Source: Blasia pusilla (Eukaryota). Taken from it: DNA of 64,000 nt. The DNA is taken from the NCBI GenBank assembly GCA_050084515.1, contig CM114271.1:7440001-7504000 (forward strand). Reading direction: 5' to 3'. A model generated the notes under the pieces. It was given only the letters and a program-made list of their open reading frames with translations, did not search any database and was not told the DNA's origin. Of this stretch, positions 5,728 to 61,079 are shown piece by piece; the stretch's first letter is position 1; every line of letters starts with the position of its first letter. The position numbers and the translations under genes are program-made.

Positions 5728-6044
5728 GACACACTCCTAGCAGCCGTAGCCTGCCATGAATCTGACGTGGACGGCCCGAGCATCCGCTCCAAGGGCAGGT
5801 CCATCACCTCCTCTGCAATCACCTCTGAACATGCTGCAAGAACTCCAACTCCACGCTCACATAGCGGAGCGGCCAGCCAAAAAGCCTTGATGGGCGTACC
5901 TCCCAACGTCATAACATCGGAAGCAGAAAATAAAGGAGCGCGGTACACAACGATGGCCGCCCCCAACAACGTGCTCGACACATGCCCCTCCTAAGCATCA
6001 ACAATAGGAGTCTCCGCACTTGCTTCTCCCATTGCCCTCTATGC

Positions 6045-25762: not shown

Positions 25763-25891
25763 GCCAACTCACTCAGATCTCCTCCTCGTTTCTTGTGTCC
25801 CTCCTCGAGCGTCCGAGTCTAGCCGCTACCTTGAAATTTCCCAAGCGTCCGGCTGATCCCACGACCCCAAGTTCTCGCTCACCAAGGATAA

Positions 25892-25903
25892 GCTCTGATA
25901 CCA
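25892..25903 (-). promoter_or_regulatory. Primer binding site (tRNA-iMet)
   Basis: TGGTATCAGAGC on the minus strand, 2 nt inside the 5' LTR end. Confidence 0.93.
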
Positions 25904-25905
25904 CT

Positions 25906-27745: not shown

Positions 27746-28382
27746 TGTCACGATTGTTAGGATAGATCGGTGGGATCTAGAAGAGCATCTTCACGAGTAG
27801 TGGAGATTAGGCCCAAGAGGTTGAGAATGACTTGTTGAGGCCACGGGAAACCTGAGAGAACAGGTTTCCCCTTTGTTTTGGCTCATTTGGAGCCATATAG
27901 AGAAACTTACTATTTCGAGTAAGTTTCCATATTGGGGATAGTTGAATTTCCACTTTGGGAAGTGGCCCTTGATCCACTACATCAAGAGCCAAGGAGGTGA
28001 TCTGCGAGCATAGGTTACCGTTGAGAGGGCTTGAGAGAGGGAAGGGGGTATACCTCCAAGAGAGGGAGCTTCAGAGCTCATTCTCTCTTTGTTGAACCTC
28101 TTGGCATAAGGCGGCGGAGCTATGGTCCCTTGCCTTGTGAGTGTAACCCAAGCCTCTCATTAGGAGAATGGGTTTGTTTGACATGAGAGAGAGTGCACAC
28201 CTTTGAGAGCTATGGTATGAGATGGTGTAGAGAGAGAGATTGGATCTTACTTTAATTGGAGATATTTTGGTACTTCTCGCCTCTATGTATGGATGACATG
28301 AGTTAGCATGGGATTGTGTGTGTTTGTGTGTGTGTTTGATGACAGCGATGTATGTTGTGTAGCAATGTGTATGCGCACGACA
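27746..28382 (+). mobile_element. Probable solo LTR (or deletion derivative) of the DNMT-Gypsy family, inside Copia gag
   Basis: TGTCACG...GCACGACA ends with AATT on both sides. The 5' part matches the start of copy C and the 3' end matches the end of copy B. Confidence 0.75.
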
Positions 28383-31300
28383 AATTGAACGAAGTGAGGA
28401 AAGGATCGTAGAGCATCAATGATTATATTTTGAGTATCAAACATATTGTTGATCAGTTTAATAGCATTGGAGTGACAGTAGAAGATGATGATCTAATTTT
28501 TTTCACTCTTCAAGGCCTTCCAAAGGATTGTAAGTCCTTTGAGACTTCTATCTTTGTGAGAGAGAAGTATCCAACCTTTCAAGAGTTAGTCCCTTTGTTA
28601 ATTAGTGAAGAGATGCGCCTAGTAGGCAGCGGTAGCTCGTATAGTCTGCATGAGAGTGCGCTATTTGCAGGTTATGGATCAAACAGAGGCAGGGATTGTG
28701 GCAAAAGCTTCCGTGGTCGTGGTGGATATCAATCATATGGAAGAAGAAGCACTCAATATAACGTCACTCAATCAACTACAAACCAATACCAAACACAATC
28801 ACAAGATGGTGATAGTGGAAACCGATGGGGTTGAGGTCAGCAGCATAGGGTCCCTAGATCTTGCAATTACTATGGGATAAAGGGTCATTATGCAAAGTTT
28901 TGTTTCAAGAAGAAGGCAGATATGAGAATAGGAGCCTTACAGCAACAAAACTATGTGGAGCAACAACACAAAGAGCAGTACCAAGAACAAAAACATTCAT
29001 AAACGGAGCATCTCTTGGTCATTACTCATCATATGGGAGCAACCATCAAGAAAGACTCGACAATAGATTGGTACATTGACTTTGGTGCATCAAATCACAT
29101 GACCTCACAAGCTAAATGGTTGAGTTGTTTGGACCCGGTGAAAGATCTTGCAATTGTGCTCACAGGAGATGACACTCAACATCATATCACGCATACCGAT
29201 AAAGTTCCAATAGCATCAGATGGTCTTTGTGCTCTTGGAAATATTCTCTATGTTCCTTCCATTGTAAGAAACATGATCTCTGTAGGATAGATAGTAAAAT
29301 AGGGTTATCAAGTGAAGTTTAACGCAGATGGTTGTTTCATTGATACAATGGATGACCAGACTACGATAGCCAAAGGAACTAGATCTGGAAGAATGTTCAA
29401 ATTAGATGTTTCTAAGCCAGAGATTCAAACAACAATGTATGGTCAAAGCGACCAACAAGTCCTAGATCTAAATGTGTGGCATAAAAGAATTGGACATATG
29501 AATCTTCAAAGATTATAGAGTCTTTCATCATCTAATATAGTAATACGACCTCCTAAATTAGTGAGTCCTGCTACGTTAGAGGTATGTCCTGCTTGCCAAT
29601 TTGGAAAACAAGCTAGATTTTCTTTTCCTAAGCAAGATAGAAGAGCATCCAGGATATTGGAGTTGATCCACAATGATGTGTGGACAGCATCATGACATAG
29701 CCTTAGTGGTTACCAGTACTTTGTTTCATTTATTGATGACTTCTCTAGGTATATATGGGTATACTTTCTGAAAGCCAAGTCAGAGGTATTCTCCGTGTCC
29801 CAAACATTCAAAGTTCTAGTAGAGACGCACACTAGAGAACACATTTTGAAATTGCGTTGTGATGGAGGAGGAGAGTATCTTTCAACAGAGTTTATTGACT
29901 ATTTACGTCAGAATGGCATCCAACATCAAGTGACTTGCCGTTACATTGCACAAAAAAATCAGTGGCTGAGAGGAAGAATCGACATATTGCTAAAGCGGCA
30001 TGAGCTATGCTGAATGAGAAGAACGTGCATTAGGTGTATGGGGCAGAGGCTGTAGCACGCGCAGTCTTCTTAATCAACCGAACTCCAACAGCAAAAGTTC
30101 ATGATAAAACTCCATTTGAATATTTCATAGGAAGTAAACTTGATTTTTCCTTCTTGAAAGTATTTGGTTGTATTTGTTATGCTGATGTTCCTTCTGAGAG
30201 ACGTCATAAATTAGACCCCAAGTCTGAAAGATGTATCTTTATTGGCTATGCTGATGGAACTAAGGGGTATAAGTACTACATTCCATTCTCTAAGCATCTT
30301 ATTATTAGTCGGGATGTTGTCTTTGATGAACTAAAGTCATAGTATGCTCCATCTGAGCCTATTCCACCCCTAAACTTGTCTGTTGAGGGGGAGAATATGA
30401 TTGTAAACCAACAGACATTGTCTTCAACTTCCCCAAGTACTAGTGCAGGATTAGGAGAGGTCCTAGATTCATCAGTTACATCTGTGAGTCCATGGACGGG
30501 AAGAGTACGTATTCAATCTGTTGACACTAGTCAAAGCTCGAGTTAGGTGTCAGAGGCATCTACCTCTGAACAACAACTTCTTAGATCAAGTAGAATTACA
30601 CATCCAGTTCATAGATTCATAAATGAAGGTTTCCTTGTGACACATCATGCATATATGATGACTACCCTTCAAGAACAGGAGCCGAGTTATTTTGAAGAAG
30701 TTGTAAGCAAAGTCGAATGGATTGAAGCTATGGAGGAAGAGCTCCACAGACATGGGAGCTGGTTGATATACCTTTTGGTAAGGAAATCTATTGGTTGCAA
30801 ATGGGTTTATAAAATCAAGCGTAATCAAGATGGTAAAATTAACAGATACAAAGCAAGATTGGTGGCTTAGGGCTTTGCACAAATATATGGCATCGATTAT
30901 GAGGAAACATTTAGCCTTGTTGCAAAGATGGCGACTACAAGAACAGTGGTTGCAATTGTAGTAAGTAAGAAGTGGAGATTACATCACATGGACGTCAAGA
31001 ATGCCTTCTTGAATGGAGGTCTATATGAGGAGATATATATAACTCAACCACCTAGATACGAGCATCCTAAGTTTCCATTTTGAGTATGCAGGTTGAAGAA
31101 AGCTCTATACGGGCTCAAACAAGCTCCAAGAGCTTGGTATGGCAAGATTACATACGTCCTACAAGAGTTGGGTTTTAGGGTATGTGATTCTGACTCCTCG
31201 TTATATATCTTGAGAGGACAAGATCATACGGTTCTCATTGTGTTGTATGTTGACGATCTCCTGATTATTGGGAGTATTGAAGAAATAGTACAACAAGTCA

Positions 31301-32129
31301 AGCTTAAGTTACAAGCAGAAATTGATATGAAGGACTTGGGAGAACTCCAGTACTTCTTTGGTATTGAGTTTATCAAGATTGGAGAAAACATGTGGTTACT
31401 ACAACGATAATATGCTCTTCATATGCTTTCAAAATATGGTATGACGGCTTGTAAGCGAATCTCTATACCGTTGGACCAGAGTGTGAAGCTAAGAGTGGAT
31501 GCAGGACAATTGCTTGCAGATTTTAATATGTACAAGCGCATGGTTGGAAGTTTGATCTATCTAACTATAACTAGACCAAATTCGAGCTATGTTGTCGGCC
31601 TAGTGAACCACTTTATGCAAGCATCTCGTCCGAGTTTTCAATTAAAGGGATTCACAGATGTTGATTGGGCAAGAAGCGTGTCTAATCGACACTCCACATC
31701 TGGTTATTCATTTACTTTGGGAAGCGTAGCTATAAGTTGGGCTTCAAAGAAGCAACAATCTATATTTGCTTTATCTTCAATAGAAGCTGAGTACAAAGGA
31801 GCAACCAATGCAGCATGTGAGGCAGTGTGGCTTCATCGATTACTTGTTGAGATTGGTGTTAATAACTAGGGACCTAGTATAATATATGCAGAAAATACTA
31901 GTAGCATCAAGCTTACTAATAACCTTGTGTTTCATGCTCGTACAAAGTATATTGAGGTGCACTATCATTTTATCAGAGAGAAAGTGCTCGCAAGAAAATT
32001 TGATTTTGTGTATATAGGTACAGATCAACAAATTGCTGACATCTTTACAAAGGCATTGTCTAGAGATAAGTTTGAGATGTTTAGAAATGATTTAGACGTT
32101 AGAGATATCGATATGAGCTTGAGGGGGAT

Positions 32130-32437
32130 TATTGAAGATTGAGTTATAGTCAAGCTCATGAGACACCTGAACTGCTACATTTGGTACTCACACAAAGTAG
32201 GGAAGCTTAATCTTGGTTAGTCAGTTAAGCGCGATCATCTTAACTAGGGTTAGTTAATCATAGTTAGTCTAACTCGAGACTATGGTTAAGGTTAGGGTTG
32301 CTTGTACATACCCTATATAATTGAGAAGGGGATCAACCTCCACTCATTCTGTCATTGCAAATTTTGTTCTCTATGGTGGTGTGTGAGTGTGAGAGCCATT
32401 TCCCACCAGTTATGCTTCTTTAGCAGTTTTTCCCACA
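32130..32437 (+). repeat. Copia 3' LTR (~310 bp)
   Basis: Follows the PPT and matches 54569-54879. Confidence 0.9.
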
Positions 32438-34869
32438 CGATTTTGACGGGTTTCATTTGTTTTATGAGCTTTTTGTTTTTTACAGACTCTGGCTAGATCT
32501 TATGGTTAGTTTTATTGTCTTATAATTTTTCAAATGCTGACGGTTTGCAAGATAAAAAAAAATTAAGACAAGACAAGCCTTGAAACCTATTAGATTCCGA
32601 CAAGTTGCATGTTTGAATGGATGGAATCTGGCTATTTTCTAGCATATGGATGCTTCATTTTTCTATATCATGTCTTGCAAGATGTCGTATTTCTCACAGG
32701 TTGCATGTCTGAATGGAATCTAAGATTTTCTTGCATTTCTCTACTTTGTCATATTTGAGTAGCCGATAGGCCGAGATCTATCGTGGATAGGGCGTGGGAG
32801 CCACTGGACTATCTTGAGTGTTACTTTGTCCCATGGTGTCGGATGAGGTTGAGGATAGGTCCATTGTGTCAAAAACGTCATTTTTGACAACTTTCTTGTT
32901 GAGGTCTTTCATAGCCGGGTGACTTGTTGACCAGGTCACCCACCCCTGGTAACTTGTGCGCACAGGTTACCAGGAGAAAAGCGATTTTTAGGGGAAGAGC
33001 CTTTTGGATCTTTCCAACCCTATATAAGGGAGGAAGATGGCTTTCCCAAGCCATCTATCCGTGAGAAAACAAAAAGTGACGAAATCACTGAAATCTTTAC
33101 AAAACTTAGAGATCCGTGCATCTAGTCCGTCTGTGTACGCTCACAGAAGAGCTTCGATGGAACCTAAACTAGAGATAACTCGACTGGGTGTGCCCTTTTA
33201 ACTACTCTTTATTTTTACATGAGAAAGATGTCAGGGGGCTGGTGGGAATGCATTGTTTGCAGGTAGGCAAGCGAGTTGCCTCGGTGGGGAGCTGTGGAGA
33301 TGCCGATTGACATTTTTTTGTTGGTCATTTTGTGTTCAGAAGGCCGTGCACGGAAGCACTGTCCATTTTTTGCAGATTTCTTTGGTGCACATTGACGCAA
33401 GACAGAAGCCGCATATAGCATGCGGTGTGGCATTGAGTGTACGCAAGCGGGTGTGTCGAGAAAGAGCAAGAAGAAGTTGCAGTCACCTTGAGGAGGTCGG
33501 CTAGGCCAGGTTAGGTTGTAGCCTCCTAGGGCATGTTTTAGGTCATTGTAGAGTTGCCGGGACCGGGAGTGAGGGTCGTCGGGAGGGCGGTGAGCACGGC
33601 CGCAAAACCACCCCCCCTGCAGTTTGGGAGGCGCCCCCCCCCCCCAACACTTGGGAGGCGTGCATAGGGTCGCTCGTCCCCCTTCTCTACACACGTGCAT
33701 AGGGATGTGGGCCAAGGGCCTGACGACCCCTCCCCCCCGCCCCACTTTTTGCGGACGTGGTCGGCGCCAACTTCGGGAGCGCCGTGGTTGGCGCCTCTCA
33801 CCCAATGTGGTAGCAGGATAGGGTGTACATCGTAGCGGTGAAGGAGACGTGGTAGCAGGGAAGGAGACGTAGTAGCGGTGCGGGCAACGTGGTAGACGGG
33901 CTGACATGGTTGAGTTCAGACAGAGTGGAGTAAGGTTACATGGCACGTTTGGGGATGGACGGAGAGGTGTGCGCGACGTGATGTTTTTCGGGCATGGTTG
34001 GGATTTGTGAGAGTTGCGATGGAGACATACACGTTGATGCTCACGGGAGGTTTGACGTGTGTGCGAGGAGATGGTTGTGCTACGGAGGTTGTCATGCCAC
34101 ACGTATGGAGTGGATGTTGACGGTGTAGTAGGTTGGTGGGCGTGATCAAGTTACCCATTCGAGTCCCTTTTCTCGCACTTATCTTCTGTGATTGAGAGTG
34201 CTAGGTATCGGGTGGTAGTTGGTGCTAGATGGATGCAGTGATGGTGACGAGTGTAGACTCTTTTCATGTGTAGCATGTTGGTCGATATACGGCGGTTGCC
34301 GAGTAGGGGTCGCATGTATGACCTGAGCGTGTCGATAGGTTAGGTGAGTTAGTAGGAGGCTCATGGTGAGCCTCAGTGTTTAGTGTGCGTGAGGTTGGGT
34401 GTGTCATCACGAGATTGATGTTAGCATAGGTGAGCTAGTGAGGAGTGTGGGAGACTCTTGGTGAGTCTGAGTGCTTGAGCGGGTGAGATAGGTCATCACG
34501 GTGTTCTTCCACGGTTCAAAAGAACAGGGTAGTGCGAGCAGTAGTAGTGGTGTGACACATAGTGGACTGAGATACCGAGGGGTTATGAGTGAGGAGCTAC
34601 CTCGACATCCATTCGTGGCTAGATCGTCATCACTAGACATTGGGTTTGGTGATGAGATTGCAGACACAGGCAGTATCACTTGGCACGAGATGGACGACAT
34701 GGGCCATCGGGGCATACGTCATTTCTCAGGGTGGGCACCATTGAATTAGATGATTTTATCCAGGATTTCGACAAGTGGTGCGACTTCCAAGAGATACAGA
34801 CCCCGACACGGTTCAACCCTTTCATGGCATGGAAAGGGTTGTTCTAGCACTTGGAGGGTCCTCCGATGG

Positions 34870-36126
34870 TGTGATACCCACAATTTTGTAATCTTGAAGA
34901 ATATATCTTTTTATTCAACGAAGACTCTTGTATAGTATGATTTTGATTATGATTATCTATTATTATGAAGAAGAATAAGTGAATCACCAAGCTCCCAAGA
35001 CAAGGCAGAGAGATGGAAGATCAAGGATTTGCCTTAGAGGAGAATCAAAAGCTGTAACGAAGTATAAAGGATCAACGTGAAGCTCAGCGAAGCTTAACAA
35101 AGTCTAACGAAGCTCAACTAAGCTCTATATACGAAGTACCTCGCTCTTGACCGAAGAGCGAAGCACGAAGAGCGAAGAGCGAAGCACGAAGAGCGAAGAG
35201 CGAAGCACGAAGAGCGAAGAGCGAAGCACGAAGAGCGAAGAGCGAAGCACAAAGACGAAGAAGAATGAAGAACTCCGTCCTGCGGAAATTTAGCGCAGCG
35301 AAGCTCCGCATGATTGTGATTCGAACCGACACATAGTTTAAACAATTAGACTAGGAAAGGGCGCGACCCTTTGTATCAAATTGGTAGTTAGAACAATTTT
35401 GTACCGCGGATTCACAGGGATCGTAGGAAAAGCTAAGAGAACCATAGATCTAGGTAGTTACAGATATTGAAGAGACACCAACTTCATCAAGAACGCTTCG
35501 CATCATAGAAACGCTCCTACTCTCGAGAATATTTAAGAAACAGGACAGAAGCTATCATTATCATTCGCTCATGACGTCCTTATGCTATAGGAATGGTCCG
35601 AGCAAGAGAGTTGTACCCTCTCGAGCTTGTATATACTTTAAAGTCTTCCAATTCTTGATGGAGTAGTAAAGCATTCATTCATTCATTCTGATGTGCGATG
35701 CTTATGTCTGAATACTCTTTTTGGGTCTGCCGAGTGAAGAGTGAATCAGGCGAACCTTTCTCATCAATGGAATAATCAACATAAAGTTGTATGAAATCTG
35801 TTTGACAGAGAGTAACCTGCCCCGACGGATTGAGTTCCGAAAGTAGGAGAAGCCAGTTTTATTGTTGAGGTCTCTGTGAGGTTCCGAGATGTCGAGAGAA
35901 CAAATTGCCTGAGCGTACTTTAAACTCCACTCGAGAGAATTGAAGAAGAAAACATAGGTACTAAAAAAGATCGGAAGATGTTACTGGAATACTACATTTG
36001 AATTACATAATCAATTACACTTTTACAACGTAATCATCACTTTATACTCTCTTTTCATCCAACAATGATCCTCTTGGGGATCGAACTCTACAATTGACTG
36101 TAAATCAAAAACACTTAGACATTACA
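34870..36126 (+). mobile_element. Solo LTR (~1.26 kb) related to the Athila-like family, inside copy B gag
   Basis: TGTGATACC...ATTACA ends, TSD GATGG/TATGG; the gag peptide LEGPPM/DDY rejoins across it. Confidence 0.88.
35153..35250 (+). repeat. 21-bp minisatellite (GAAGAGCGAAGAGCGAAGCAC) x ~4.7 inside the LTR
   Basis: Perfect tandem copies visible directly. Confidence 0.95.
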
Positions 36127-38664
36127 TATGGATGACTATATGGAGATTCAATCATTATATTTAGTAGAGATCGATGCCTGGAGGATGTATTAGGCTCTAG
36201 GGTATGTGTCCTCTAGTGGTCGCGAGGCATATGATGGGATCGTGAGAGGAGAGAGACCCACACCATCAACCCGGAGACTAGATGGAGAGGAGGGCAGTGA
36301 GATAGGTGATGTGGCAGAGACCTCTAGTGGTAGAAGGCCACCCAGCTTCAATCCCATAGTGGAGTTCTTCCAACAGTTGGGGAAGAGCTACCAGGGCGTA
36401 TGCACCAACAAGTTGAAGCGTCTATAAGATTTTCAGCGACGATCGGGTGAGAGTCTGAGAGAGACATTCACACGCATGAGGAGGCTGATCATTGCTACGT
36501 ACGAAGTGATTGAGGCGTAGTGAGTCTATTATTGGTATAGGGTTCTGGATTGAGAACTATGGAGGAGAGTCTGAGAGGCGGTGCTGATTCACACAGCGAA
36601 GCCCACATTGAAGGTGGTCTTTGAGTTTTCTGAGCGTATTGAGCTCAACATGAGTGAGGAGCAGGTAGTAACCGCCGGATTTTCTCGAGAGTCGACGGGT
36701 CCACGAGCGACGGTGACCCCACAGGTGCCACAGCGAGCACTAGTACCACGGGAGCAAGCCAGTGTCCCCAGAGAGTAGGCCCCGTACCGTGAGCCTATGA
36801 GGCAATGACCCGCACCTACATATGTTGCCCAACAGGGACCGATGTTGTCTTGTTGGACATGTGGAGGGGCCCATAGGCAAAGAGACTACACACAACATGG
36901 GAGAGGACCACGAGCGCTTATGATTGCGCAGGAGTCATAGAGGATGGCCCCACCAGAGTACCAATGTGATTATTGCCACTAATATGGTCACACTAGGGAT
37001 AGATGTTTTAACCTTCGTCCAAAGGCACGTCCAGAGGTAGGCTGAGGGCTTGGGGGCGGTCATCTTGGAGGAGGTCGGGGAGTTCTTCCTGGACGTGGTG
37101 GTAGAGGACCACCACCAGCCAGAGGAGATGGAGCAGGAGCACCAAAGCCGGCACTTCTTTCAAGCATCAATCAGTTGGACCAGAGGATTGCAACCATGAC
37201 GATGATGCAGCTCAAGGAAGGTAGGGAGCTACGAGCAGCTAGTGTGGCTCCAACTTCTACCTCTTACCCTCACCTGGGTGAGGATCTTGCTAGTATGGGG
37301 TTTATGTGTAGTGCAGCTCAGGTTGAGGTAGCTGCAGTGGTGACTCAAGGTGCTACGAGAGGCACCAAGCCATCGAGAGGTGGAGTTGAGATTTACCCAC
37401 CAGAGGGGACCGATGGGCGGCAGGCCAGGGTTCCACAGTCATTCACATTGTCGGAGGCATTACACACACCATCGATGGTGCCTTGACGACCAGCAGTGCC
37501 TACAGCTCAGTCAGGTACGTTGACGTCACAATAAGTTGGAGTGACAACTCCTATGCCGGCTTGAGTGGAGTCAGTGTCCACCATAGTGTTGGAGGTGGGC
37601 ACCAGAGTGAGTTAGACTCCGCTATTTTCCGCCATAGAGTTGGCGCCGTTGGGAGTTGGACCAGTTGAGGTGTTCCGGCTAGCCGCCACATTGTGCGAGC
37701 GTAGAGAGGTGACTGCTTCTTGTTCAAAGGTAGTTGAGGAGGTGGTGGATCGGACTTGCCCTTAGAGCCGGTGCTCGGGACATCCCCATAGAGTCATGGC
37801 ATGCGGCGGTGGCGAAGTTGGTAGATATGCCGGCTCAACCAGCCATAGAGCGAGCAGTGGTGACACTTGGAGTAGTGTTACTGGATAATCGAGCTGGAGT
37901 ATTTCGCTTGGTTAGTCCGACGGGGATAGTTTACCACCGGCAGCGTATCCTACTTCATTCGAGAGGGCAACCCTTGATGTTAGGGAAGGCGGCGTGTTTA
38001 GTGTTGGGGTTACGGAAGGCCAACATTGAGACTTGTCCCTTCCAGATACAGACCTCGATTGGGAGCGTGTCACCCACACAGTATATGACTCGACAGGAGA
38101 TAGTTGTCAGAGTCCAACCAGAGCATGCGACGGATAGTGCTATGGTGCGCACACGTGCGATTACAACACCAGTTGAGTCGTATGATGTGTTGATGGGGAG
38201 TATAGTGTTATCTTCCCTAGGATTCATCCTTGACTTCTAGGAGTGACCGTTGCTTATTGGCTAGGGTGGCGGTTAGTTGACGGGCAGATGAGTCAGTTAC
38301 CCATGCAGTTTGCGAGACAAGGTGGTTGAGTACGAGACGAGTCTGTGACCACGTTGGCAGCTTTTACAAGTAGTGTTAGTTGGCTAGGAGAGTTGTTGGA
38401 GGGGAACGCACATGCGGAGGATGTCCCAGTAACGGATAGTCCCACGGATAGACAGGCCATGGCGGATGTCTCTTCCCATGTTGGCAAGACCTCTTCACCA
38501 TTGTGGGGTACAACTCGAGAGCTATAGAGGATTGCCGACGACCTTGTCAGGCAAGCATGGAGTCATGCCTTTATCCCGAAGCAGCGAGAGTCAGGTGGCG
38601 ATCGGGTTCTTGGGTGGATACGTTCACCCCACTGGATACCACACCGATTGTGTGGCAGTGTCTA

Positions 38665-39645
38665 GAGGAGGGTGTTAGATCTCTTCAAAGGGATTAGCAC
38701 CGGATTGGATGCAATATTACAGGCTTGCATATGGGTGCATCAGTACCTTTATGTGGAGAGAGATGAGACCGTGCGGTGAGTATCATTGCGTCAAGTGGCG
38801 AGATTGCTCCAGAGGTATCCTGAGTTGTTTCCGGTATCTGCAGTACGTGGATATCATCATACACTACCCGCCAAAATCTCTTTGGTGGGGGCGCAGGATC
38901 TGGATAGAGTTGGCACCATTCATTTGGTGATTGTTGGATGGCCATGTCAAGGTCATTCATCAGCTGGCCGAGGATTTGGATTGCAGGATCTGAGGTGAAG
39001 GATGTTTTGGGAGATGCTACCAGTAGTACGGCACTTGCAGGAGAATCGGCATATTCTCCGGCATATATTTTGGAGAACTTTCCATTTTTGGGAGACACTC
39101 ATGCACGTGTGATGACGAGTGTGCATCAAGTGAGGTCTTGGTTGGGACCTACTCTGTTGCTAGATGCAGCGATAGTTGGATCACGCGCCCATCATCCATG
39201 ATTGTGGTGGACAAACCTGATACCATCAGAGGTATTGAGTCGAGTATACGATGGAGTCCAAAGAGCACCACATCTCACAATGGATGCTATTTTGGGCTCA
39301 GGACGTCAATCTCAAGTGGTGACGCAGGCTGATAAACCACCGTTGGCGATGGCCAATAGGGTGGGGGAGTTGAGGGTAGCCTTACCTACGTTCGTGAGCT
39401 TCCAAGCATCCCATGCCTTTTATCAAGGAGGTCCAGGCATGATTTGGGATGAGGTGACCCAAGCATTAGAGGAGCCTATAGCAGATGAGTGTGAGCGCGC
39501 TATGAGGTTTGCTACAGGTACTACAGCGGAGCCAAGTATGACTGAGGCATCCGAGAGACAGGTGTTGGGGCAGGTGATGGACCTCAACTGTCTCACATGG
39601 ATAGTCAACCTAGGTATGGCTAAGCAGAGATGGATGCGAGTGTAA
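38665..39645 (+). pseudogene. DNMT3-like C5 cytosine methyltransferase domain inside pol, copy B
   Basis: DLFKGIS (I), YVER (II), HLVIVGWPCQG (IV, catalytic Cys codon 38945-38947 intact), YILENF (VI), LDAAIVGSRAH..WWTNL (VIII), ECERAMRF (IX), RQVLGQ (X). Confidence 0.9.
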
Positions 39646-40014
39646 TCCATGCCGTCACGTCCACGAGTTGGACCATTGCCTACATGCTTTGTACATGCAT
39701 TGGCTAGGGGCGGGACGAGGAGAGATAGAGACCTGTGGACTTCTTGGGATGTCGTTCGAGTGGAGAGTGAGAAGGCTAGAGTAGCACATGTTCCTTTTTT
39801 GGATGTGGAGCATGGTGTAGGAGGTTAGAGTGGACTGGCTATTGTGCAGGTGGCTAGGGTTGCTACATAGCAACCAAAGCCGTAGGTTGCGTCATCTCCG
39901 AGTGAGGTCGCGATGGAGACTGGGGAGCCTATGATAGGTCTCAAGTTGATAGGAAGAGAACGACGGTGAGTTCATAGGTTTCTGAGAGGGCATATCAATT
40001 TTTTTGCCTTTAGT

Positions 40015-42760
40015 ATGAGAGACTTGGGTATATTGAAGGACCCTAGGATACGGATTGAGTTGGCTAGTGATACGCCAATCTTTCGTCAACCCTACAAGTA
40101 TTCTGATATGGAGCGAGCCCTGATTCAGAGCAAAAGTCAGGACTTGTTGGAGGTAGGACTTGTGGAGTTATCACATGGGGAGTATGCATCTGCCACAGTC
40201 ATGCCGGAAAAGAAGGATATGTATGGCAATTGGATGGATAGGCGGATGTGTGGAGATTACCGTCCTATCAATCGACAGACGAGGTCAGATCGGTACGCCA
40301 TCCTACTCGCGAGGAGATCTTTAATGTGGTAGGGCATGCAAAGATCTTCAATACTTTAGATCTCCGTAATGGCTATCATTAGCTTCCTATTAGGTTGGAG
40401 GAAAAGGAGAAGACAACATTCTGGGGGATAGATTGGTTCGGGAGAGATTGCTTGTATTAGTGGCGGTTCTTAACATTTGGGTTGAAGAACGCGCGTGCAG
40501 AGTTTCAAAGAGTGATGGATGGGATTTTGGCTGGCTTGGATTTTGTACGATGTTACATAGATGATATTCTTATCTTAAGTTCCACGGTTGAGGAGCATGA
40601 GCAACACCTGGAGGAGATATTTCGGCGATTGCAATTACATGGACTGAAGTTACATCCAGGCAAGTGCAGATTCTTTCAAGAGCAGATTGAGTACTTGGGA
40701 CACACCATATACCCGAGTGGGTTAGGCATTCAGCAGACAAAGGTAGAGGCTATTGCACAGATTCCATGCCCTACAGATGTGAGTCGAGTCCGACCATTTC
40801 AGGGACTGCCGAGCTTCTATTGACGGTATGTCAAGGGTTTGAGTGCAATATCAAAGTCTTTGACCTTGTTGACGAGACTTGATCAGGTTTGGTTGTGGGG
40901 AGATGATAAGGAGCGACCATTTCAAGAGCTCAAGGACAGGTTGACTTCCTCACCCATTTTACAGAGACCGGTTAGGGGTCGCCCATTCCAGTTACATACG
41001 GATTGGAGCATGTTGGGTCTAGGAGCAATGCTTACTCAGAGGGACGACGAGGAGAGGGAGTTTGTTGTGGCTTACGTGAGCCGATCAAACAACATTGCAG
41101 AGGCAAACTACAGCTCTTACGAGGGAGAGTGCTTGGCTGCAATGTGGGCCGTGGCACATTTTAGGTGCTATTTATTCAGCAACCCTTTCACACTTATCAC
41201 TGATCATCAGCCGTTGAGGTGGTTGATGGAGTCCGACAAGCTTACGGGAAAGCTTGCAAGATGGACTCTATTACTACATCAGTATGAGTTTGAGGTGGTT
41301 CATAGACCATGTCAGCTGAACCAAGATGCGGATGGGTTGAGTCGTAACTCATATCCGAGTCGGAGAGATGAGGAGATGGTGCCCGGTTGGCATGCATCTG
41401 CCTATCTTTGTTGGTTGAATATGGTAGGTCAGCCACAGGTGATGACTCCAGTGGTGGGGTTGGATGATGAGTCTTTGGGTCCGAAGGTCGAAGGTCAGTG
41501 AGGAGGCGACATGTGATCGTGATATCCATGACGACATGGAGGTTGTGGAGTTGTTGCGCATTGGCGTCATAGCGAGCATAGTGAGTACTAGGGAGCGGGA
41601 TCGGATCCTATAGAGAGCCATGAGGTTCAGGTGGGAGGGGACTCACATTTTTTGGGTATGGAGAAATGGTAGGATACGAGTGGTACCTCATCCTTCCCAT
41701 CGAGCACGTGAAGTGCGACATACCCATGAGGAGTTGGGGCATTTTGGAGTAAAGCGTACTTACAGCTTACTCCACGTTTAGTATTGGTGGCGCGGCATGC
41801 ATACTAGGGTAGAGCAGTTTGTGGCCAGATGTATGGTATGTGATAGAGTGCGAGCATCCTTCAATGCTCCCACTCCGCAGTTACATCCTTTGCCGATTAT
41901 GGATTTAGGTTATCGGTGGAGTTTAGACTTTGCGGGACCTTTGCCATTGACGAGGCATTATCACAGGTATGTGTTGGTCATGGTGGAGCATTTCTCCAAG
42001 TAGATAGAGTTGGTGGCACTACCGGACAAGGCGAGCAAGGGAAGAGCTTATGTGTTTCTAGATCGTGTGCTTAGTCACTTTGGTGCACCGGAGGAGGTGT
42101 TGATTGACCAGGGTACCGAGTTCAAGGGAGAGTTTCAGGCCTTGTGCGATCAGGCGCAGATAGATCACCACACCACATTGAGAGATCATCCTGCAGCGGA
42201 TGGGTTGGCAGAGAGAGTTGTACAAATAGTGAAGAGAGGATTGCGCAAGTATGGCTTGTGGCCAGGATAGTTGAGGGAGTGGGACCTACAGTTGCCATGG
42301 TTGGCTATGGGTTATCGCTTTAGTCAGCAGGCATCCTTGGAGTTATTTTCACCGTACTTTTTGCTCTTTGGGAGAGAGCCAGATTTACCTGCAGGTATTC
42401 TACGTGACATGCAAGAGATGTTAGATCTTGATGATCCAGATGTGTGGGTACAAGCGTGTTCTTAGAAAGCGGAGATTTTTTGTAGAGTTATGCTTGTGGC
42501 CTTTGAGAACTTAGCTATTGCTCAGCATAGAGATACATTGAGGTACGCGACCATTCGTGGAGGAGGTTATCGTCCAAGGATTAGGAGGTTTCATCTTGGA
42601 GATTACGTGTATTTATAGCAAGCGGTACCCACGACGCTAGATGTCACTGCAGGGCGCACGATCCTACGTGTGTGCGAGGTATTACCGACCGGAGTCCTCA
42701 TGTTGGAGGGACGGATGGTATGGTATGGAAGGATCATGTGCCCAATGGTACGCCATGTCA
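40015..42760 (+). pseudogene. RT, RNase H and integrase of copy B
   Basis: RRMCGDYRPIN, CYIDDILI, FQLHTDWS, HEELGHFG...CMVC, WSLDFAGP, DQGTEF, GLAERVV. Confidence 0.93.
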
Positions 42761-42821
42761 TCTTCCAAACGTAGACGGGATAGTGGATCCGAGCTTGGCA
42801 CTGGAAGCTGCATGCTTGAGG

Positions 42822-42957
42822 TGTATGTTATGCGGATCTACGAGGGATGCAGCCACCATGTTGGTATGTGATGGTTTTTCTCGAGGGTGGCATATGTCAT
42901 GTCTCGACCCCCCCTCTTGATGTATTTCCGATAGGACGATGGATGTGTCTGAGATGT
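42822..42957 (+). pseudogene. PHD finger at the integrase C-terminus of copy B
   Basis: CMLC...MLVCDGFSRGWHMSCLDPP-(frameshift in C run)-LDVFPIGRWMCLRC; C4HC3 spacing with one Cys lost. Confidence 0.85.
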
Positions 42958-43378
42958 ATAGAGGGTAGTAGGTCTTATGAGAGAGATGTGATATTTTCTA
43001 TCTGGAGTTAGGGGGATCCAACTGCCAGCTAGGGGGGCAGTTGTGTGATCTCCATGTATATGTATGAGTTGATTTCTATACATATGTGGATCTACCCGTG
43101 TGTGGGGAAGATCGGTGTTGTGTGGTGTAGATGTGACCAGCGATTTATGTTGTGCAACGATATGTATGCGCACGACAACTTTCAGATATATGTTATGTTC
43201 CTGTTTCTTTCAGTTTTTCAGTGATAATTTTTGAGAGAATCTTATAGTGGTCATGTCTAACAACATGTCTAATTCTAACGTTCTTCTCACATTCAACCTT
43301 CCTCTATCATGCAACCTGTCAGATCGCGACAGGTTGCATGTAAGGATGATGCCTTCTATTTAGTTCATTCTCTCTCTT

Positions 43379-43762
43379 CATTTGTTATGTCATCAGACTT
43401 CTGACGTCTACCAACTTGTCGGATTGTGACAGGTTGGTAGGCTGATTGCTTCTATTTTCCTCTTAGTTTTACCTTCTAGGCTTTCTTGTTGGCTTCCTTT
43501 ACTTCTCACATGTGTGTTTAAACAAAGTTTCCAAATACCCATCAGCCTCGTAAAGACTCTATGTACCCATTCCTAAGCCAACATTTTTAACTGATTCGTG
43601 GCCTCTAGGTCTTCTGAGTCATTGTTGACAAGATTGGAATCCTACACTTTCTACCAAACTCGCCAGCCTGTCAACCTGTCATCTTTTTCAACTCATCAGC
43701 CTACCAATCCGTCACAATCCGACAGGTTGGTAGACGTCAGAAGTCTGGTGACGTAACAAACG
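43379..43762. repeat. Foldback: ~68-bp inverted repeat arms (43379-43446 and 43695-43762)
   Basis: Arms are reverse complements with a handful of mismatches. Confidence 0.8.
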
Positions 43763-46700
43763 TTCATCTTTTTAAACATTGGTAAACAGTCTTACAGAGG
43801 AAGGAATTGAAAAAGATGACAGATAAATTCAAGATGTCATCTTTTTCAATTCCTTTAGCTCTAAGATTGTCATGAGTGAGAGAAAACATCCCATCTGTCA
43901 TTAGTGAAAGTATTGGGCTAGATCTAGTAGTTAGAGTGTATTTTGAACGGATTTGATTGGTTCTATTGTGAAAAAATCCCATCTGATGGATCTGCATTGA
44001 TCGGATGGGATTTTTCATGCATTGATGGATTAAGAGCCCTCATACCCAACATGGTGAGGGTGGGGTCTTAGATCAAGAGCCCATAATCTTTTCATCTATT
44101 TGAGAAGTCAAACCCTGAAGGGCATTGTAGTCTATTGACACCATAGTCCAAGTGTTTATTAGCATCTATTATTTTTGTGAAAATAGTTTTGTACTGATGA
44201 AATTCTCTCCATATGGTTATGCAACCATAATATACCCTTTGGCTGGTTTACCCTCTAGCTTACAGGACAATGTGATAAATTTTTGGCTTACATAGAAAGT
44301 GATGTAAGCATGTATAAAGTGGTCTTATTATGTCTACTTTTAGATCCAAGCCTGGAAAAACAAGGTTAGTTTATGCCCCAATTTGGTCAACTTGTTACTC
44401 TCTTCTAAATATTTCTTGCATTTGAAAGAGAGAAAAATATAAAGAAATGTCATGAAGTTTTGAAGACAGACAGCGAATTCTGCCCTTTTTTTTTTTAAGA
44501 GAGACTCTCCTCTTTTCCTCTCTCCTGCTAGAATACCAACCCCCATATTAAAGTAATTACAGATATTTCAAGAGGTTCCTACCTACGAAGAAGCGCTTCA
44601 AATCTCAAGAACTACTACAATCCAAGATAGTATTTAAATAATACCAACGTAGTTCATAGCATCATTCTTTTAAGATATCACTATGCTGTAGGAATGGTCC
44701 AAGCAAGAGAGAGTACCCTCTTGAGCTTGTAATTACATTGGAGCTTTCTTGTCTTTGATGGAGTAATAGAGCCTCTTCTCTTCATTCTATGCTTGACTCT
44801 CTTAGGTCTGCGGAGTGAGGAGAGGACTGTGATAGAACTCATTCAAGAAAGAATCATCAATAGGAGAGATGTATGAAATATGTCTGACAAAAAGTAACCT
44901 GCCATGATAGATTTAGTTCCACTAGTAGGATGAGCCGTCTCACTACTGAGTTCTCAATGAGATTCTTTCGTGTTCCAATGAGGTCCTATACAGAGAGTTC
45001 TTTCTTATTCTACTAGAGAAAATATTTTGAAGGAAACAATGGTACTTGTTACTGAGAGGATGTTGTGATTGATATCTCTATCCTAACAACAAACACATTC
45101 TCAGAATTCATGCATGTTTTTTACTATTCAAACTCTCTTTTCAGATAACTGTGATCTTCTTGGGGAACGAATTGCATATTCTTGATTGAAAGATCACGTT
45201 TTACCTTTCTTTGTACATTACAAAAGGATTTGAACATATCTTTATAAAGAAAGAAGTGCTTCATATCTCAAGAACCCCTTGAGTTTGCACCAATATTTAA
45301 AGATTATTACAGTATTTCGCATCATCATTCTCTTAAGATGTTGTTATGTTGTAGGAATGATCCGAGCATTGAGAAAGGAGAACCCTCTTAGGCTTGTAAC
45401 TGTATTGAGTCCCTCATGTCTTTGATGGAACAAATGTCTCCCCTTTCTTCAATCTAATGTGCGGAGTGTATGCATGATCTTATGGGGTCTACAGAGAGAA
45501 GAAAGGTTGGTTCTTGAATTCAATCAAGAAAGAATAGACAGTGAGGGAGATGTATGAAATTTGTTAGAGAGAGAGTAATCTACCTCGATGGATTAAATTC
45601 CGATAGTAGGTTGAGCCATCGATTCACTATGTTATGTATGACGTCCGTTCTTGGTTAATCGAGATCCAGATCATGAGAGGTTATTATTTGTTCCACTTGA
45701 GAAGTTACTCTTAGGGAAATTAACATATTTGGTACTTAGTGAAGTCTTTCCTGTTTCTTCGTTTCCTACATTATTGAGAAACTTAATGAATTGTTCTTTT
45801 TTATTACAAACTTCTCTTTTCAAGAAATTGTGATCTTCTTGGGGAACAAACTATATACTATTTGATCAAAAGATTATAATTTCCATTCTCTTGTACAATA
45901 CATATAGAGTTGAGAATTTTTGGCGCCGCTGCCAGAGACTACACGCTTATCTGAAGAAAGAAGAGGTAGAGGTAGTGGGGTTTGGCGGAGACGAATTAGG
46001 AAGAAAATTTTGTTCAACCCCCAAACGTACAATTGGTGTTGACAGAGGAACATCTGCTCTCCCTAGCTCGTCCTCTTAGGTAGTGGATTGGGGAGTCTGA
46101 ACCGAACTCTTTTGCAGAGTGAGTGTTGAGGACAATAGAAAGATTACTCCATCTAGTGAGAGAACCTGCTACAAGGAGGTGTCCAACCCATGCACGTCAG
46201 TTCTACTAGGTGATGACCTGCTACTTCTATTTATGGGAGGAAGATCTTGAGCGGAGAGTGCAAGCGCAGTGAAGAACAACTAGATTGTTTATTTTGTAAT
46301 CCTCATGGAATGTTTCTTAGTGAATTGTCTGTGTGTGCAAGCAATAATAATAGATCTGTGGATTACCTATGGAGTTAGATTGACCGTCTCAAAATTAGCA
46401 AGTTAAGAGATGGAACAAACATCGAGGAGAGAACACATCTTAGAAGCCACCAAGAATTGCACTCAATCCTCGACCACGAGTAAGATCTAGAAGGAGGGAC
46501 GGAAGCACGTCTCCTCGTGTCTCTATCTCATCTTTGCGAGGGCCCAAGGCAGACAAGGAATTGACTTAGAACCCATTTGGGGAATCCAAAGATGAAGCAC
46601 CCCCGTAACCGCCAAAGTGAGAACCGCTACCTCCGCCCTCTTAAAGAGTTAGCCCAAGGCTTGACGAAGAAAAGAGTCTGCACATGGCTAACATGAGAAA

Positions 46701-50355: not shown

Positions 50356-53300
50356 TGTGATACCTCCAATTTTTAGAATTTCAAGGATATGCTCAATTTT
50401 GTAAATAAAGGAGTACAATAGTCTTCAAGAATGAAGACTGAAGACTATATGGCAAGAAAGTTTGTATAGAAAGGGAGTCTTCAATATTATTTTGGTGTAA
50501 TGGAAGAATGAGGAGTATTGGAATTGATTATGAAGATCCTAGGATAAGGCAAAGAGATAGAAAATCAAGGACTTGCCTTGGAGGAGAGGGAAATGAGCTA
50601 ACAAAGTTTGAAGACCAAGAACAAAGCTCGGTAAAGACGGCGAAGCACGATAAAGCCAAGTACTTGGTAACGAAGTACTTGGAGCAAAGACAAAGAACAA
50701 AGTACCTCGAACAAGGACGAGGAGAAAAGTGCTTCGTCAGTTAAGGAAGACGAGGAGGTCAAGACTTCGCAATGAAGGTAGGATTGTCCGCGATTTCAAG
50801 CGGCACACCGTTACAGTAGTTAGGCTAAGAGAGCTAAGACCTGCGGATTCCTAGAGATCATAGGAAGAGTTAAGAGAACCGTAGATTTAATTAGTTAAAA
50901 GATCCCAAGAGGGGCCTACTTAGCAAGAAGCGCTTTAGATCTTTGGTACAGACACCGTTTGATCGGCTATTTAAAGATCATCAAAGTAGTTTCTAGTATC
51001 ATTCTCTTACAACATCCTTATGCTATAGGAATGGTCCGAGCAAGGTAGTAGTGCCCTCGCGCGATTGTAAACACTTTGAAGCTTTCTTGTTCTTGACGGA
51101 ATAGCTGAGACCTCCTTTCTTTACTGTGATGTGCGATGTGTATATGCCTAATCTTCTTGGGTAAGCAGAGTGAGGAGTGGATTGGGAGAACAGTTTTTAC
51201 CAAAACAATAATCAATTGCAAGATGTGAGAAATATTTTTGATAGAGAGTAGCTTGCCGGGACACATTGAGTTCCAAGAGTATGAAGAGCTGTCTCACTGT
51301 TGAGATCTCTGCGAGGTTCTTTGGTGTTGAGTGAGGATCTACGTGAGCATTCGTCCTATTCCACTTGAGAGGACCGATGGAAGGAAATCTTGGTACTTAT
51401 TAAAAGAAGAATGACATGATGAATGTTTGAATCCGACTTGTATACACATATTTTTTACTTTTACATGATAACAAACATATTAAACTCTCTTTTCAGATAA
51501 TAGTGATCTTCTTGGGGATCGAACTTCACACTTATTCATTAAATAGATCATTTTCTATTATCCTTGTACATTACATATAGTACCAAATTCTTTGCGCCGC
51601 TGCCAGGGATGACAAGATTAGATGAGGAGAGAGAGAAAGAGGGTTATGGGTGAAGCAAGCAAGAAGGAAGGAGCCTCCCTACATCCCATACCATGCCACT
51701 TAGTGTTAATAGAAGAACACTTGTTGTCTCTAGTTATCCGCCTTTGGCAGTGGAGTGCTGAAGATAATAATCCCTTGCTGCGCAAGTCTTAGCAAAGATA
51801 GAGCAATTAATTAGTCTTGTCAAGGAACCTATGGCCAAAAGGTGTTCCGTCCACAAATGTCAGCTGCACTTGGTGATGACTCGGTACTTTTGTTCATGGG
51901 AGGAAGTCCTGGCAACATGGTTGCCCAAAAACGGACAAGTCCTTCCTTAGGATGGACATGGACGGACATGTATGGACAAGTCTCGACATGTCCACGGACA
52001 TGTGTCCCAAAAGGTGGGACCCACACTTTTAGTCCATGATGGAAGGCAAGGCAAGGATGAGAGGAGCAATGAGGAAGGAGGGAGTGGAGGTGGAGGGAGG
52101 AAGGAATGGGGGAGTATGAAACACAATGACAAGTAAGGGGAATGAGAAATAAGGGAAATGTGGGGCCATACGGACAAGTCATTCCATAGGACTGACATAA
52201 ATCCACGGACATGGACATGTCCACGGACACGAACTTTATCCACATGCATCCTTGCTTGGCTGCTAGATTGCGAGCATAACCCCATAGAAATTGAGAAGAG
52301 CTAATTGTCCATCCATGGAGTTGCATTTTATAACAATCTTCGGTGAGCAACCAAGATCTGGAACCTCGTGGGGTACCCATGGACGAAGACCGACCATCAG
52401 CTCAGAATCAGAGAGTTGATCGTAGGAACAAGCAGCAAGAGGAACATCCATCCTAGAAACCACCAGGAGTAGCTCCTACTCCTTGTCCTCTTGCAAAGCT
52501 GAAGAGCAAGAAGAGGGACGGAAGTGCTTCACCCCGCACCTCCCCCGTACCTTCAAGGTTAGAGGATGACACAACTTGGAATCCCTTTGGGGATTTGGGG
52601 TATGAGGTACCTACAAGGCCACCGAAGCCTGAACCTATAACTCCCCCTTCACGAAGAACCAGCCGAATACCTAACGGCCAGACACATCAGATGGCCAACA
52701 TTAGGAAAATGCTGTTGAGATATCCCACTTTTGCGGGAGGTTGGAGAGATGATGTGGAAATTTTTGTGCTTGAATTTACCCATGTTATTAAGGCTAATGG
52801 GGAAGGTTCGGAGGAAGAGTTGTTACGGGTCTTTCCAGGTGTGTTGAAGAAACGAGCTACCAGATGGTATGACGGGCTTGAGGTCGATGCCAAAGAGACT
52901 TGGAAGCGGGTCTTGCAAGCCTTCCTACATGAGTTTCGGGACTTGGAGTTCGAGGACCGGCTCCTAACAAAGCTTCGCGACTTGAGGAGGAGGAAGAAGG
53001 AGACCCTGAGGGAGTACACTCAGAGGTTCGAAAGCTTGGTGAATAAATTAAAGCACACCACCACTTCCCAATTGGTGGATTGGTGTGTGTCAAGACTATC
53101 AAAAGAAATGGACCGGTACTGCCGACGGGGCCAACGAGATTTGCAAGAAGGAGTCAATGTGTCCGCAGAAGTATACAAAGCCTCCGAGAAATCCCGAAAA
53201 ACACAAAGACAGCACCATCAACCGCGAGGGTCTTCGCGGACAAGTTCCTTGTCCAAGGATGAAGCGTCCTCCATAGACACCGGATCTTCAACAGACAGTA

Positions 53301-54419
53301 TAAGTGAGTCCTAAGATTTTGGGGAAGACTCCAAAGCTTGTAAAAGAGGAAAGAAAAGCACCATAAGAGTTCCTCAGGGCGTGGGAGAAAAACCAAGTCA
53401 ACAAAGCATGTTAGTTGGAAGTTTATGAGTCTTGCATGCAAGCCAGCAAGGGATGCAAGGAAGTCTACCATTGAGGAATTAACAAAACAAATGGGTGAAT
53501 TAAAAGTGCATCTAGTGGCCCAAAAGGAGCCTTGAAGAAGACCAAGTCTGATGAGACCAAACATGTGGTGCAATGCCTAAGGAAACCAAGGGCATACTGC
53601 GTAGGAATGTCATCTTCAAAGATATATTTTTTTGTTTCAAGAGGACTCAACCCTTGAAGATGGGTGGTACGAAGTGGAGCAATGAGAGGGGTGCTTTGCA
53701 ATCCAAATCGTGGCAATACCTAATCCCGTCCAAAATTGGATTCCAAGGTACATGCCCCCAAAGTATGGTGAATAAAGACCTCTACGGCAGATCATGGGAC
53801 CCTCAACCATCACTCCACGTATCAAAAGGAATTGCTGCTCCAATTGTGGAGCAGCATATCACTAGGCGAATAATTGTCGAAAACCGAAGAGACCAGTGGG
53901 GTTGAATCCCTTGTGTGGAAACTATAAGAAAGGAGGGTATACCGTGGTGGAGTGTCTAGAACCAAAGGTTACTCGGTTGCTGGTGAAGTATGTGGCCACC
54001 CCAACAGCACAAGTTAAGGCCAAGAATGAGGTGAATGTTCAACTAGTACGTGTGGAGAAGATATCTTCTCCGAAAGCGTGTAAAAAGGTTACCATACATG
54101 AGGAGGAGCCCGAAAGAAAGAAGATAGAAGAGTCTTTGGACTAGCCCAAAGAACTCTTGAGCGAAGTCCTTGCGATGACCACGAGGTCGAAAACAAAGCA
54201 TGTCGCAAAGACTAAGACAAAGGATACTTCTTCATCCTCACGCAACAACAAAGACTCACAGAAGAGGAATGAACACTTCCGTGCAGGAAAAGCCATCGTG
54301 AAGGGGGATGTGGACCTAGCCTTTGACCAAAACCATCCTAAGTATTTTCATCACGATGTCGAAGAACGGGTTTGTGCCCAAGTCAACAAGGATCACGCAC
54401 AAGGTTTTGGATTACAAGA
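50356..54419 (+). mobile_element. Athila-like Gypsy fragment 2: 5' LTR 50356-51575, PBS-like site, decayed gag
   Basis: TGTGATACC...ATTACA LTR, TGCGCCGCTGCCAGGGA at ~51593, 239-aa gag ORF 52595-53314 paralogous to fragment 1. Confidence 0.82.
51916..52254. mobile_element. hAT-like MITE, second copy
   Basis: Both ends match those of the 19239/26914 element (inverted), GGACATG repeats, absent from the paralogous leader near 46240; TSD degraded. Confidence 0.6.
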
Positions 54420-54568
54420 TGTGATACCTCCAATTTTGAAAATTTTGAGGATAGGACCAATTTTGTATAAAAGGAGTACAGAAGTCTTCAGGAATGAAGA
54501 TTGAAGACAATATGGAAGTAAAGATTGTATATAAAGAAAGTTCTTCACTATCATTTTGGTGTAATTGA
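54420..54568 (+). repeat. Start of another Athila-like LTR, cut by the Copia insertion
   Basis: TGTGATACCTCCAATTTT start, same as 50356. Confidence 0.8.
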
Positions 54569-61078: not shown

Positions 61079-61079
61079 G

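Follow-up and report, generated by a model that had tools for sequence, protein, structure and literature searches.

The element at positions 32,747 to 43,177 (+) of the window, the 64,000-nucleotide stretch of Blasia pusilla DNA analysed here (contig CM114271.1), is a dead member of an abundant Ty3/Gypsy lineage, Gypsy-DNMT3, and kin of KnitGypsy-Dnmt3. The insertion itself is an ordinary dead copy; the lineage, which carries a PHD finger on its integrase together with its own DNA methyltransferase (DNMT), spans green algae to land plants. The explanation that we consider best, and hold with slightly more belief than doubt, is that of a silenced, decayed copy from a high-copy Gypsy-DNMT3 lineage with split terminal repeats, in which PHD and DNMT are separate, uncoupled modules. 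The domain order is gag–PR–DNMT3-like–RT–RH–INT–PHD, and the element was annotated as follows.

32,747–43,177 (+): decayed Gypsy-DNMT3-PHD element, entire, with TGTC...GACA ends and a 4-bp target duplication, ACTT
32,747–33,218 (+): probable 5′ terminal repeat unit A of a split A-coding-B-A-B repeat, placed from contigs of other copies
34,690–37,100 (+): gag, broken, with two degenerate zinc knuckles (~36,851–37,006), from tblastn to Marchantia Mp_4g09160 (P0008) and translation
34,870–36,126 (+): foreign solo-LTR-like insertion inside gag, TG...CA, with a near-perfect 5-bp duplication, matching the repeat family at 57,214–58,259
37,794–38,237 (+): aspartic-protease region, broken (tblastn, 53% to P0008 584–732)
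38,672–39,640 (+): DNMT3-like C5 methyltransferase (PF00145), unpermuted, dead (stops, frame break, motif VIII damaged)
39,868–39,876 (+): in-frame TAG-CAA-CCA between DNMT and RT, probable readthrough signal (34 of 39 loci)
39,925–41,370 (+): reverse transcriptase and RNase H, broken (PF00078, PF17917, PF17919)
41,569–42,821 (+): integrase with H2C2, core, helical linker and C-terminal beta-barrel, 6 stops and a frame break near 42,712 (PF17921, PF00665)
42,822–42,957 (+): PHD finger closing the Pol ORF, with Cys4 replaced by Phe and a frame break in a C-run (PF00628, homologues)
43,031–43,177 (+): polypurine-tract-like run, then terminal repeat unit B (~43,039–43,177), aligned with B1/B2 of loci L006, L011, L014 and L048

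The PHD finger was found exactly where the earlier note had placed it. For the repaired translation, the frame break that lies in the C-run near 42,905–42,915 was bridged by an X; PF00628 then matched at 33.5 bits (E 4.4e-8, model positions 1–47 of 47, cut-off 24), while the N-terminal frame alone gave 23.1 bits (E 7.6e-5), slightly below the cut-off. A PDB search with the finger returned 62 matching sequences, and all 60 listed were PHD proteins. Ligand positions are C1 42,822, C2 42,831, C3 42,867, His 42,891, C5 42,900, C6 42,946 and C7 42,955–42,957, with Trp at 42,940. The proposed C4HC3 finger is a PHD, but its ligand set is incomplete in the window copy: the fourth Cys (42,876) is Phe, where 164 of 167 parsed family PHDs have Cys. 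The matching region of Marchantia Mp_7g09570 is 66% identical to the window PHD. Sequencing error as the origin of the PHD was ruled out by the homologues. The ORF terminates about 16 codons past the finger. As had been claimed, the PHD occupies the place of the chromodomain in chromoviruses, and a Pfam search of the integrase and PHD pieces gave no chromodomain (PF00385). Assignment of the element to the chromoviruses was ruled out on the same result.

The integrase frame of the window copy contains 6 stops, and the breaks near 42,712 and 42,905–42,915 leave just the C-terminal end of the PHD in that frame. At the first break 471 of 997 WGS reads from other copies had a different length, and at the second 485 of 658, so the frame breaks are lesions of the window copy. 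In intact copies the PHD is in frame with the integrase, as the earlier note required: an integrase-only query recovered it in the same ORF in 42 of the 44 homologues with at least 60 residues past the barrel, among the matches listed (120 of 300), and single ORFs such as P0302 read PR-DNMT-RT-RH-INT-PHD.

PHD matches among proteins of relatives numbered 209, and 167 were parsed fully for residue counts. Asp follows C3 in 157 of the 167; at His-2, 160 have Gly and not one has an aromatic residue; the P-x-G-x-W motif keeps its Pro in 148 and its Gly in 141. His-2 is presumably the cage Trp position of ING-type fingers. Residues of the H3 A1/R2 pocket are conserved from chlorophytes to land plants. 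The conserved Asp has been tied to H3R2, and methyl-lysine (methyl-K4) reading to an aromatic cage (Lallous 2011, PMC3214078). The PDB matches listed include PHF12, CHD4, DPF3, BHC80, KDM5A/B, AIRE, ATXR5, BAZ2A and UHRF1; ING, BPTF and TAF3 were absent among the 60. EHD3, apparently described as an H3K4me1 reader, is also among the matches and counts against strict K4me0 reading. A structural model of the relative P0127 (87 sequences, mean pLDDT 77.6, ~90 over the finger) contained the integrase helices, the beta-barrel and the PHD. Its whole-chain matches include Ty3 and PFV integrases, and the modelled PHD superposed on BAZ2A/B, UHRF1, ATXR5, BHC80 and DPF2/3 at an rmsd of 0.5–1.3 Å. Both the residues (Asp after C3, no cage) and the nearest solved structures fit the H3-tail reader type that had been suggested, and a PHD lacking an aromatic cage suggests a reader of unmodified H3.

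An acidic residue precedes C1 in 107 of the 167 family PHDs and is absent from the closest clade, including the window copy, so K4 sensing may be weak there. This absence favours a rival reading that we consider unlikely, in which the PHD serves as a general anchor to nucleosomes, or caps the integrase structurally, and does not favour any chromatin state. The same reading gains from the UHRF1 PHD, which depends on H3R2 and tolerates K4 methylation (PMC3214078), and from the description of the PHD as a common accessory domain of many Chlamydomonas transposons; it has against it the 107 fingers that keep the acid typical of K4me0 readers and the conservation of the A1/R2 pocket from chlorophytes to land plants. 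We consider it reasonably likely that the PHD binds the free, unmodified N-terminus of H3, tethers the integration complex and biases insertion away from H3K4me3 promoters. The finger would contact H3 A1/R2, with no methyl-lysine cage, and thereby anchor the integrase to nucleosomes.

Assignment of the element to Ty3/Gypsy was based on the PR-RT-RH-INT order, a Ty3-like integrase and the D-D(35)-E residues, located at 41,926/42,106/42,211. Searched against the PDB, the family profile gave Ty3-G Gag-Pol as best match (E 9.8e-59). The gag is interrupted by the 1.26-kb foreign insertion. A Pfam search of the protease region of the window copy gave no match, and the Asp_protease profile matched in the relatives P0302 and P0155. 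In relatives, a conserved N-C-A-P-C-H-L-P motif closes the integrase barrel before the PHD linker (42,750–42,770); it is degenerate in the window copy and may bind an extra zinc.

The 5′ end of the element was inferred at 32,747, with 32,827 as the alternative; these are the only two ACTT|TGTC sites within the 64-kb window. At the other border, WGS depth falls past 43,177 from ~1,950 to 48, and 967 loose ends continue into mixed sequence (agreement 0.36). No classical 5′/3′ LTR pair was found in the window, and relatives have split A/B repeats. Loci L014, L035, L036, L044 and L048 terminate in B-A-B repeats, with a 5′ A also visible in L036 and L048; A units are likewise present in relatives. 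The window copy has the A-coding-B form, as do L011, L016, L017 and L039, and both A-to-B and B-to-A junctions occur in reads of other copies. Unit A was placed on the basis of contigs of other copies that run leftward from B (43,040) into sequence like 33,195–33,216. Termini of the TGTC...GACA type are shared by the L006/L048 group; L011, L039 and L048 have 4-bp duplications.

The window is repeat-rich plant-type DNA. Its other features were annotated as follows.

1–7,103 (−): second, divergent DNMT-Gypsy copy, gag-PR-DNMT-RT-RH, which exits the window before the integrase
659–1,665 and 2,878–3,871: two solo LTRs of the chromodomain Gypsy family, inside the second DNMT-Gypsy copy
~11,300–12,500 (+): helicase-like remnant, labelled by eye from the translation
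19,556–26,897 (−): young chromodomain Gypsy (PF00385), 1-kb LTRs 98% identical, 5-bp duplication ATATC
27,746–28,382 (+): solo terminal-repeat unit with TGTC...GACA ends and an AATT duplication, belonging to a sister subfamily
29,700–32,140 (+): Copia remnant
43,240–44,030: short inverted-repeat element flanking the 3′ end of the Gypsy-DNMT3 element, with motifs that recur left of the 5′ end
52,457–54,500 (+): another Gypsy gag (PF03732)
60,283–61,095 (+): another gag piece of the DNMT-Gypsy family, the third in the window (51% identity to Marchantia P0008), not followed by Pol within the window

The chromodomain Gypsy has ordinary paired LTRs and is ~27% identical to the PHD element in RT and integrase.

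Copy number was estimated from WGS reads. At a likeness of at least 85% the family accounted for 65,368 of 12.43 million reads (0.53%), 96 of them 99% alike, and a depth near 950 from 1,966 Mb of WGS works out at ~480 copies for each Gb of the genome. In two RNA runs the family was matched by 1,436 and 1,615 reads; most had the orientation expected of sense transcripts, and most were under 95% alike and so came from other copies. CpG o/e was 0.64 over 36,130–43,177 versus 1.0 in the young chromovirus of the window, and differences between the window and the reads were dominated by cytosine-deamination types; both are consistent with long methylation of the window copy by the host.

The DNMT domain matched PF00145 at 22.7 bits (cut-off 22). 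Its motifs (I 38,675; IV, WPCQ, 38,939; VI 39,067; X 39,568) follow the order I-IV-VI-VIII-X, and the family DNMT profile matched DNMT3A/3B best in the PDB, then DRM2. The window DNMT is 60–65% identical to Marchantia and Calypogeia proteins and 38% identical to Klebsormidium (K. nitens) KFL_009030040. An intronless, unpermuted Dnmt3-like domain thus lies in a Gypsy polyprotein region, as in Gypsy-DNMT3. Among 122 family DNMT representatives, the Pro preceding the catalytic Cys of motif IV is Glu in 67 (GWEC type). In viral contigs, one weak DNMT match and no relative of the integrase were found.

DNMT and Pol of the window element are in the same frame and are split by a stop conserved in the branch, not joined in one ORF. 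The TAG at 39,868 is followed by CAA-CCA, and a stop followed by CARYYA is a consensus readthrough signal (PMC5397192). Of the 39 loci with a DNMT-RT linker, 34 carry, at the corresponding position and in the RT frame, a stop of the form TAR-YAR-YY. As a control, 542 decay stops inside domains were inspected: the TAR-YAR-YY context occurred in 8 and CARYYA in 0. Exact CARYYA was present in the window and in the divergent loci L027, L040, L041 and L052, and most of the 34 stop loci form one subfamily, in which CAACCC departs from the consensus by a single base. In Marchantia and Calypogeia, gag-PR-DNMT proteins stop 97–99 residues past motif X, which resembles the stop at codon 99–100. The stop motif is absent in 5 of the 39 loci (TAC in L019; none in L036–38 and L053), the second DNMT-Gypsy copy of the window has a sense codon at this position, and DNMT and RT share one ORF in K. 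nitens P0353, P0302 and P0311. From the fused ORFs, the loci without the motif and the sense codon in the second copy it follows that the probable readthrough is branch-specific. Near the TAG, the frame of the window copy holds four further stops, which were read as decay. TAG-CAA-CCA itself is probably a leaky stop with readthrough into Pol.

In the land-plant branch it is very likely that DNMT is made and packaged at the Gag level and that RT-RH-INT-PHD arises from occasional readthrough. Most ribosomes would halt after DNMT, giving the enzyme Gag-level abundance, and a rarer Pol made by readthrough would carry the PHD. With DNMT upstream of the leaky stop and PHD downstream, the two probably act at different steps. 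A more tentative proposal, to which we give a little less than even credence, is that the abundant DNMT works mainly in the particle on new cDNA, before and independently of PHD-guided integration. Methylation of the cDNA would then take place in the particle, apart from the integration step; an idea of this kind was raised for DIRS elements (PMC5890265).

It is quite improbable, in our judgement, that the DNMT does not mark the new copy at all and instead acts on RNA or on the DNA of the host, or serves as a nucleic-acid-binding factor in packaging or against silencing. On this reading the stop would be a true terminator and Pol would come from a separate or spliced RNA. Such a role would agree with the behaviour of the KnitGypsy-Dnmt3 DNMT in yeast, where no methylation was obtained, a result that the authors regard as inconclusive (PMC5890265), with the GWEC form of motif IV in about half of the relatives, and with RNA reads that were several-fold deeper on RT-INT-PHD than on gag-DNMT. 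The step in RNA depth can, however, arise because reads of divergent copies are recruited more readily where the sequence is conserved, in Pol; most reads were under 95% alike. No intron-like joint across the stop was present among the joints listed. All of the 122 family DNMTs keep the catalytic Cys, and the six post-stop bases fit the readthrough consensus in divergent subfamilies.

The co-occurrence of PHD and DNMT, for which the earlier note had proposed a survey, was near-constant. A DNMT query gave 54 metagenome loci, of which 20 reach the integrase C-terminus and 4 of these are cut by the contig end; where there was room, the PHD was present in 16 of 16 (13 distinct). Proteins with DNMT and a complete integrase and room, drawn from the best 150 of 435 DNMT representatives (E under 1e-30), had the PHD in 46 of 49 cases. 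Among the long INT-PHD matches listed (n = 120), 91 had the DNMT in the same ORF and 22 others begin immediately upstream of RT, which is where a second ORF should start. Six long ORFs retain the PHD and lack the DNMT; five of them were placed in the tree described below, nested in clade B.

Two domain orders were distinguished. Type A, with DNMT before RT, was found in the window, Marchantia, K. nitens KFL_009030040 and the single ORF P0302, and Calypogeia proteins match both halves of a type A element. Type B, RH-DNMT-INT-PHD-tail, was found in Chlamydomonas, Pleodorina, Tetrabaena, Haematococcus and a partial Volvox protein; RH-DNMT-INT-PHD was the commonest form among the relatives surveyed. 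A quick tree of RT-RH-INT, computed under LG+G4 with SH-aLRT as the sole support measure and a long outgroup, kept 75 rows from 122 proteins, with one in three of the unnamed type-B rows retained. It set clade B apart with support 100, and the five DNMT-less PHD ORFs fell in two places inside B. A DNMT tree (43 rows) also split A from B at 100 and put the window with Marchantia and K. nitens; the type-A group comprised 10 rows (SH-aLRT 100), including KFL_009030040. Both trees were built without host DNMT3 sequences. KFL_009030040 is cut before the PHD region, but across 361 residues its integrase shares 79% identity with the PHD-bearing KFL_005000010, so the published K. nitens family probably has a PHD too; we infer that KFL_009030040 belongs to the copies of PMC5890265.

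In clade-B relatives (P0373, P0016, P0184, L051 and others) the PHD is followed by ~330 residues with a Tudor-like stretch and a degenerate amino-methyltransferase-like domain. The Tudor match was weak (P0186), and Atlas leads were all under 0.9, with N6_Mtase at 0.79. Two PHD-less members retain this tail. Among closely related dead copies, pN/pS was 1.22 for the PHD, 0.70 for the C-part of the integrase and 0.41 for the DNMT; these values, which give no support for selection on the PHD, are uninformative on account of post-insertion decay and one misframed row.

The earlier note had likened the PHD to the ADD domain of animal DNMT3 and envisaged a single unit that reads and then writes. As a coupled model this would have the PHD take a DNMT-containing integration complex to H3K4-unmethylated chromatin and have the DNMT methylate the new insertion or its flanks at that site, with the PHD in the role of ADD; we regard it as improbable. 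The near-constant co-occurrence (46 of 49), the split of both the DNMT and the Pol trees into clades A and B, and a PHD without a cage all accord with it, and in clade B, where RH-DNMT-INT-PHD sets the DNMT directly before the integrase, coupling would be possible above all. In the window's branch, however, the conserved stop separates the DNMT from RT, and ~1,000 residues lie between DNMT and PHD, with RT-RH-INT intervening. The PHD also occurs without the DNMT in two separate places within clade B and is missing in 3 of 49 DNMT+INT proteins. The stop, the gap and the DNMT-less PHD elements go against both the ADD analogy and the single unit, and two uncoupled modules are favoured over one read-and-write unit.

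A broader version of the coupled idea, which we hold to be similarly doubtful, is that one ancient lineage, from chlorophytes to land plants, rebuilt from separate parts the logic by which DNMT3 reads unmethylated H3K4 and then methylates. If so, the fused chlorophyte DNMT-integrase-PHD with its methyltransferase-like tail would methylate at the insertion site, and the land-plant branch, having shifted its DNMT to the Gag side of a leaky stop, would load its particles with a de novo methyltransferase at the capsid level, so that new copies arrive pre-methylated. The family, at ~0.5% of host DNA, could then supply de novo methylation to the host.

A Gypsy-DNMT3 with split repeats has been published for K. 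nitens (de Mendoza et al. 2018, PMC5890265). KnitGypsy-Dnmt3 resembles the family described here in its Gypsy Pol with an unpermuted, intronless Dnmt3-like domain and in its DIRS-like split repeats, seen here in relatives; it differs in that the K. nitens protein has DNMT and RT in one ORF, whereas the window's branch has the conserved stop, and in the high copy number that the family reaches in the host here (0.53% of WGS reads). The running text of that paper contains no mention of a PHD, of land-plant or chlorophyte members or of readthrough, and its Fig. 4c may show a PHD. EpiLTRs are LTR retrotransposons that likewise join a chromatin reader and a cytosine DNMT in one element (Fernandez-Moreno et al., bioRxiv 10.64898/2026.05.21.726589). 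They read chromatin with a chromodomain, and their DNMT is sister to DNMT4, with a DAM in addition, in contrast to the PHD and DNMT3-like domain of the window element, and their authors consider the acquisition separate from that of Gypsy-DNMT3; the preprint, in the portion available, does not mention PHD as a domain. Should the clade-B tail be real, the combination of DNMT3, PHD and a second methyltransferase would parallel EpiLTRs.

Chromoviruses share with the family a histone reader at the integrase C-terminus for which integration targeting is the proposed role; that reader is a chromodomain, and in the window element it is a PHD. As an accessory domain of retroelements the PHD has been called widespread (CR1-like LINEs, REM1, Chlamys), and in the accounts available it is not described there as fused to a Gypsy integrase with DNMT3 (PMC6673714, PMC8557442). 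Phygy and Selgy are, like the present family, non-chromovirus Gypsy elements of seed-free plants with a 4-bp TSD, and the mean length of Phygy, 8.6 kb, is close to that of family locus L011 (8,640 bp). The TSD of Phygy is NCGN, unlike ACTT, AATT, TACA, ATTA and AATC here (0 of 5 NCGN); Selgy differs in its length of ~5 kb, and no extra domain is given for Selgy or Phygy in the parts consulted (Neumann 2019, PMC6317226). Assignment to Phygy was ruled out by the TSD. A link to PHD-bearing Gypsy elements of lycophytes, put forward in the earlier note, could not be confirmed: the accessible text and supplements of Neumann 2019 contain no PHD, and the literature searched was silent.

The pairing of PHD and DNMT that the note had called unusual is real and is less singular than the note had it, given the published Gypsy-DNMT3 (PMC5890265), the K. 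nitens copies that appear to bear a PHD, and the preprint on chromodomain and DNMT. Three features were not found in print: a PHD throughout the family, a distribution that extends from chlorophytes to land plants with two domain orders, and the stop that probably uncouples writer from reader. The literature searched, in which subscription papers, figures, Repbase and preprint supplements were incompletely covered, gave no account of the readthrough site, the PHD-DNMT3 pairing or the chlorophyte domain order.

Why retrotransposons keep a silencing enzyme has been posed as an open question (PMC5890265). The family makes this question testable in two model organisms that have members, Marchantia and Chlamydomonas, and offers natural contrasts: DNMT before RT or before the integrase, a leaky stop or a fused ORF, and a PHD retained with or without a DNMT. 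From the stop, DNMT is predicted at Gag-level abundance, which points to methylation of cDNA in the particle, and an integrase ending in a PHD would be a histone-reading alternative to the chromodomain for target choice.
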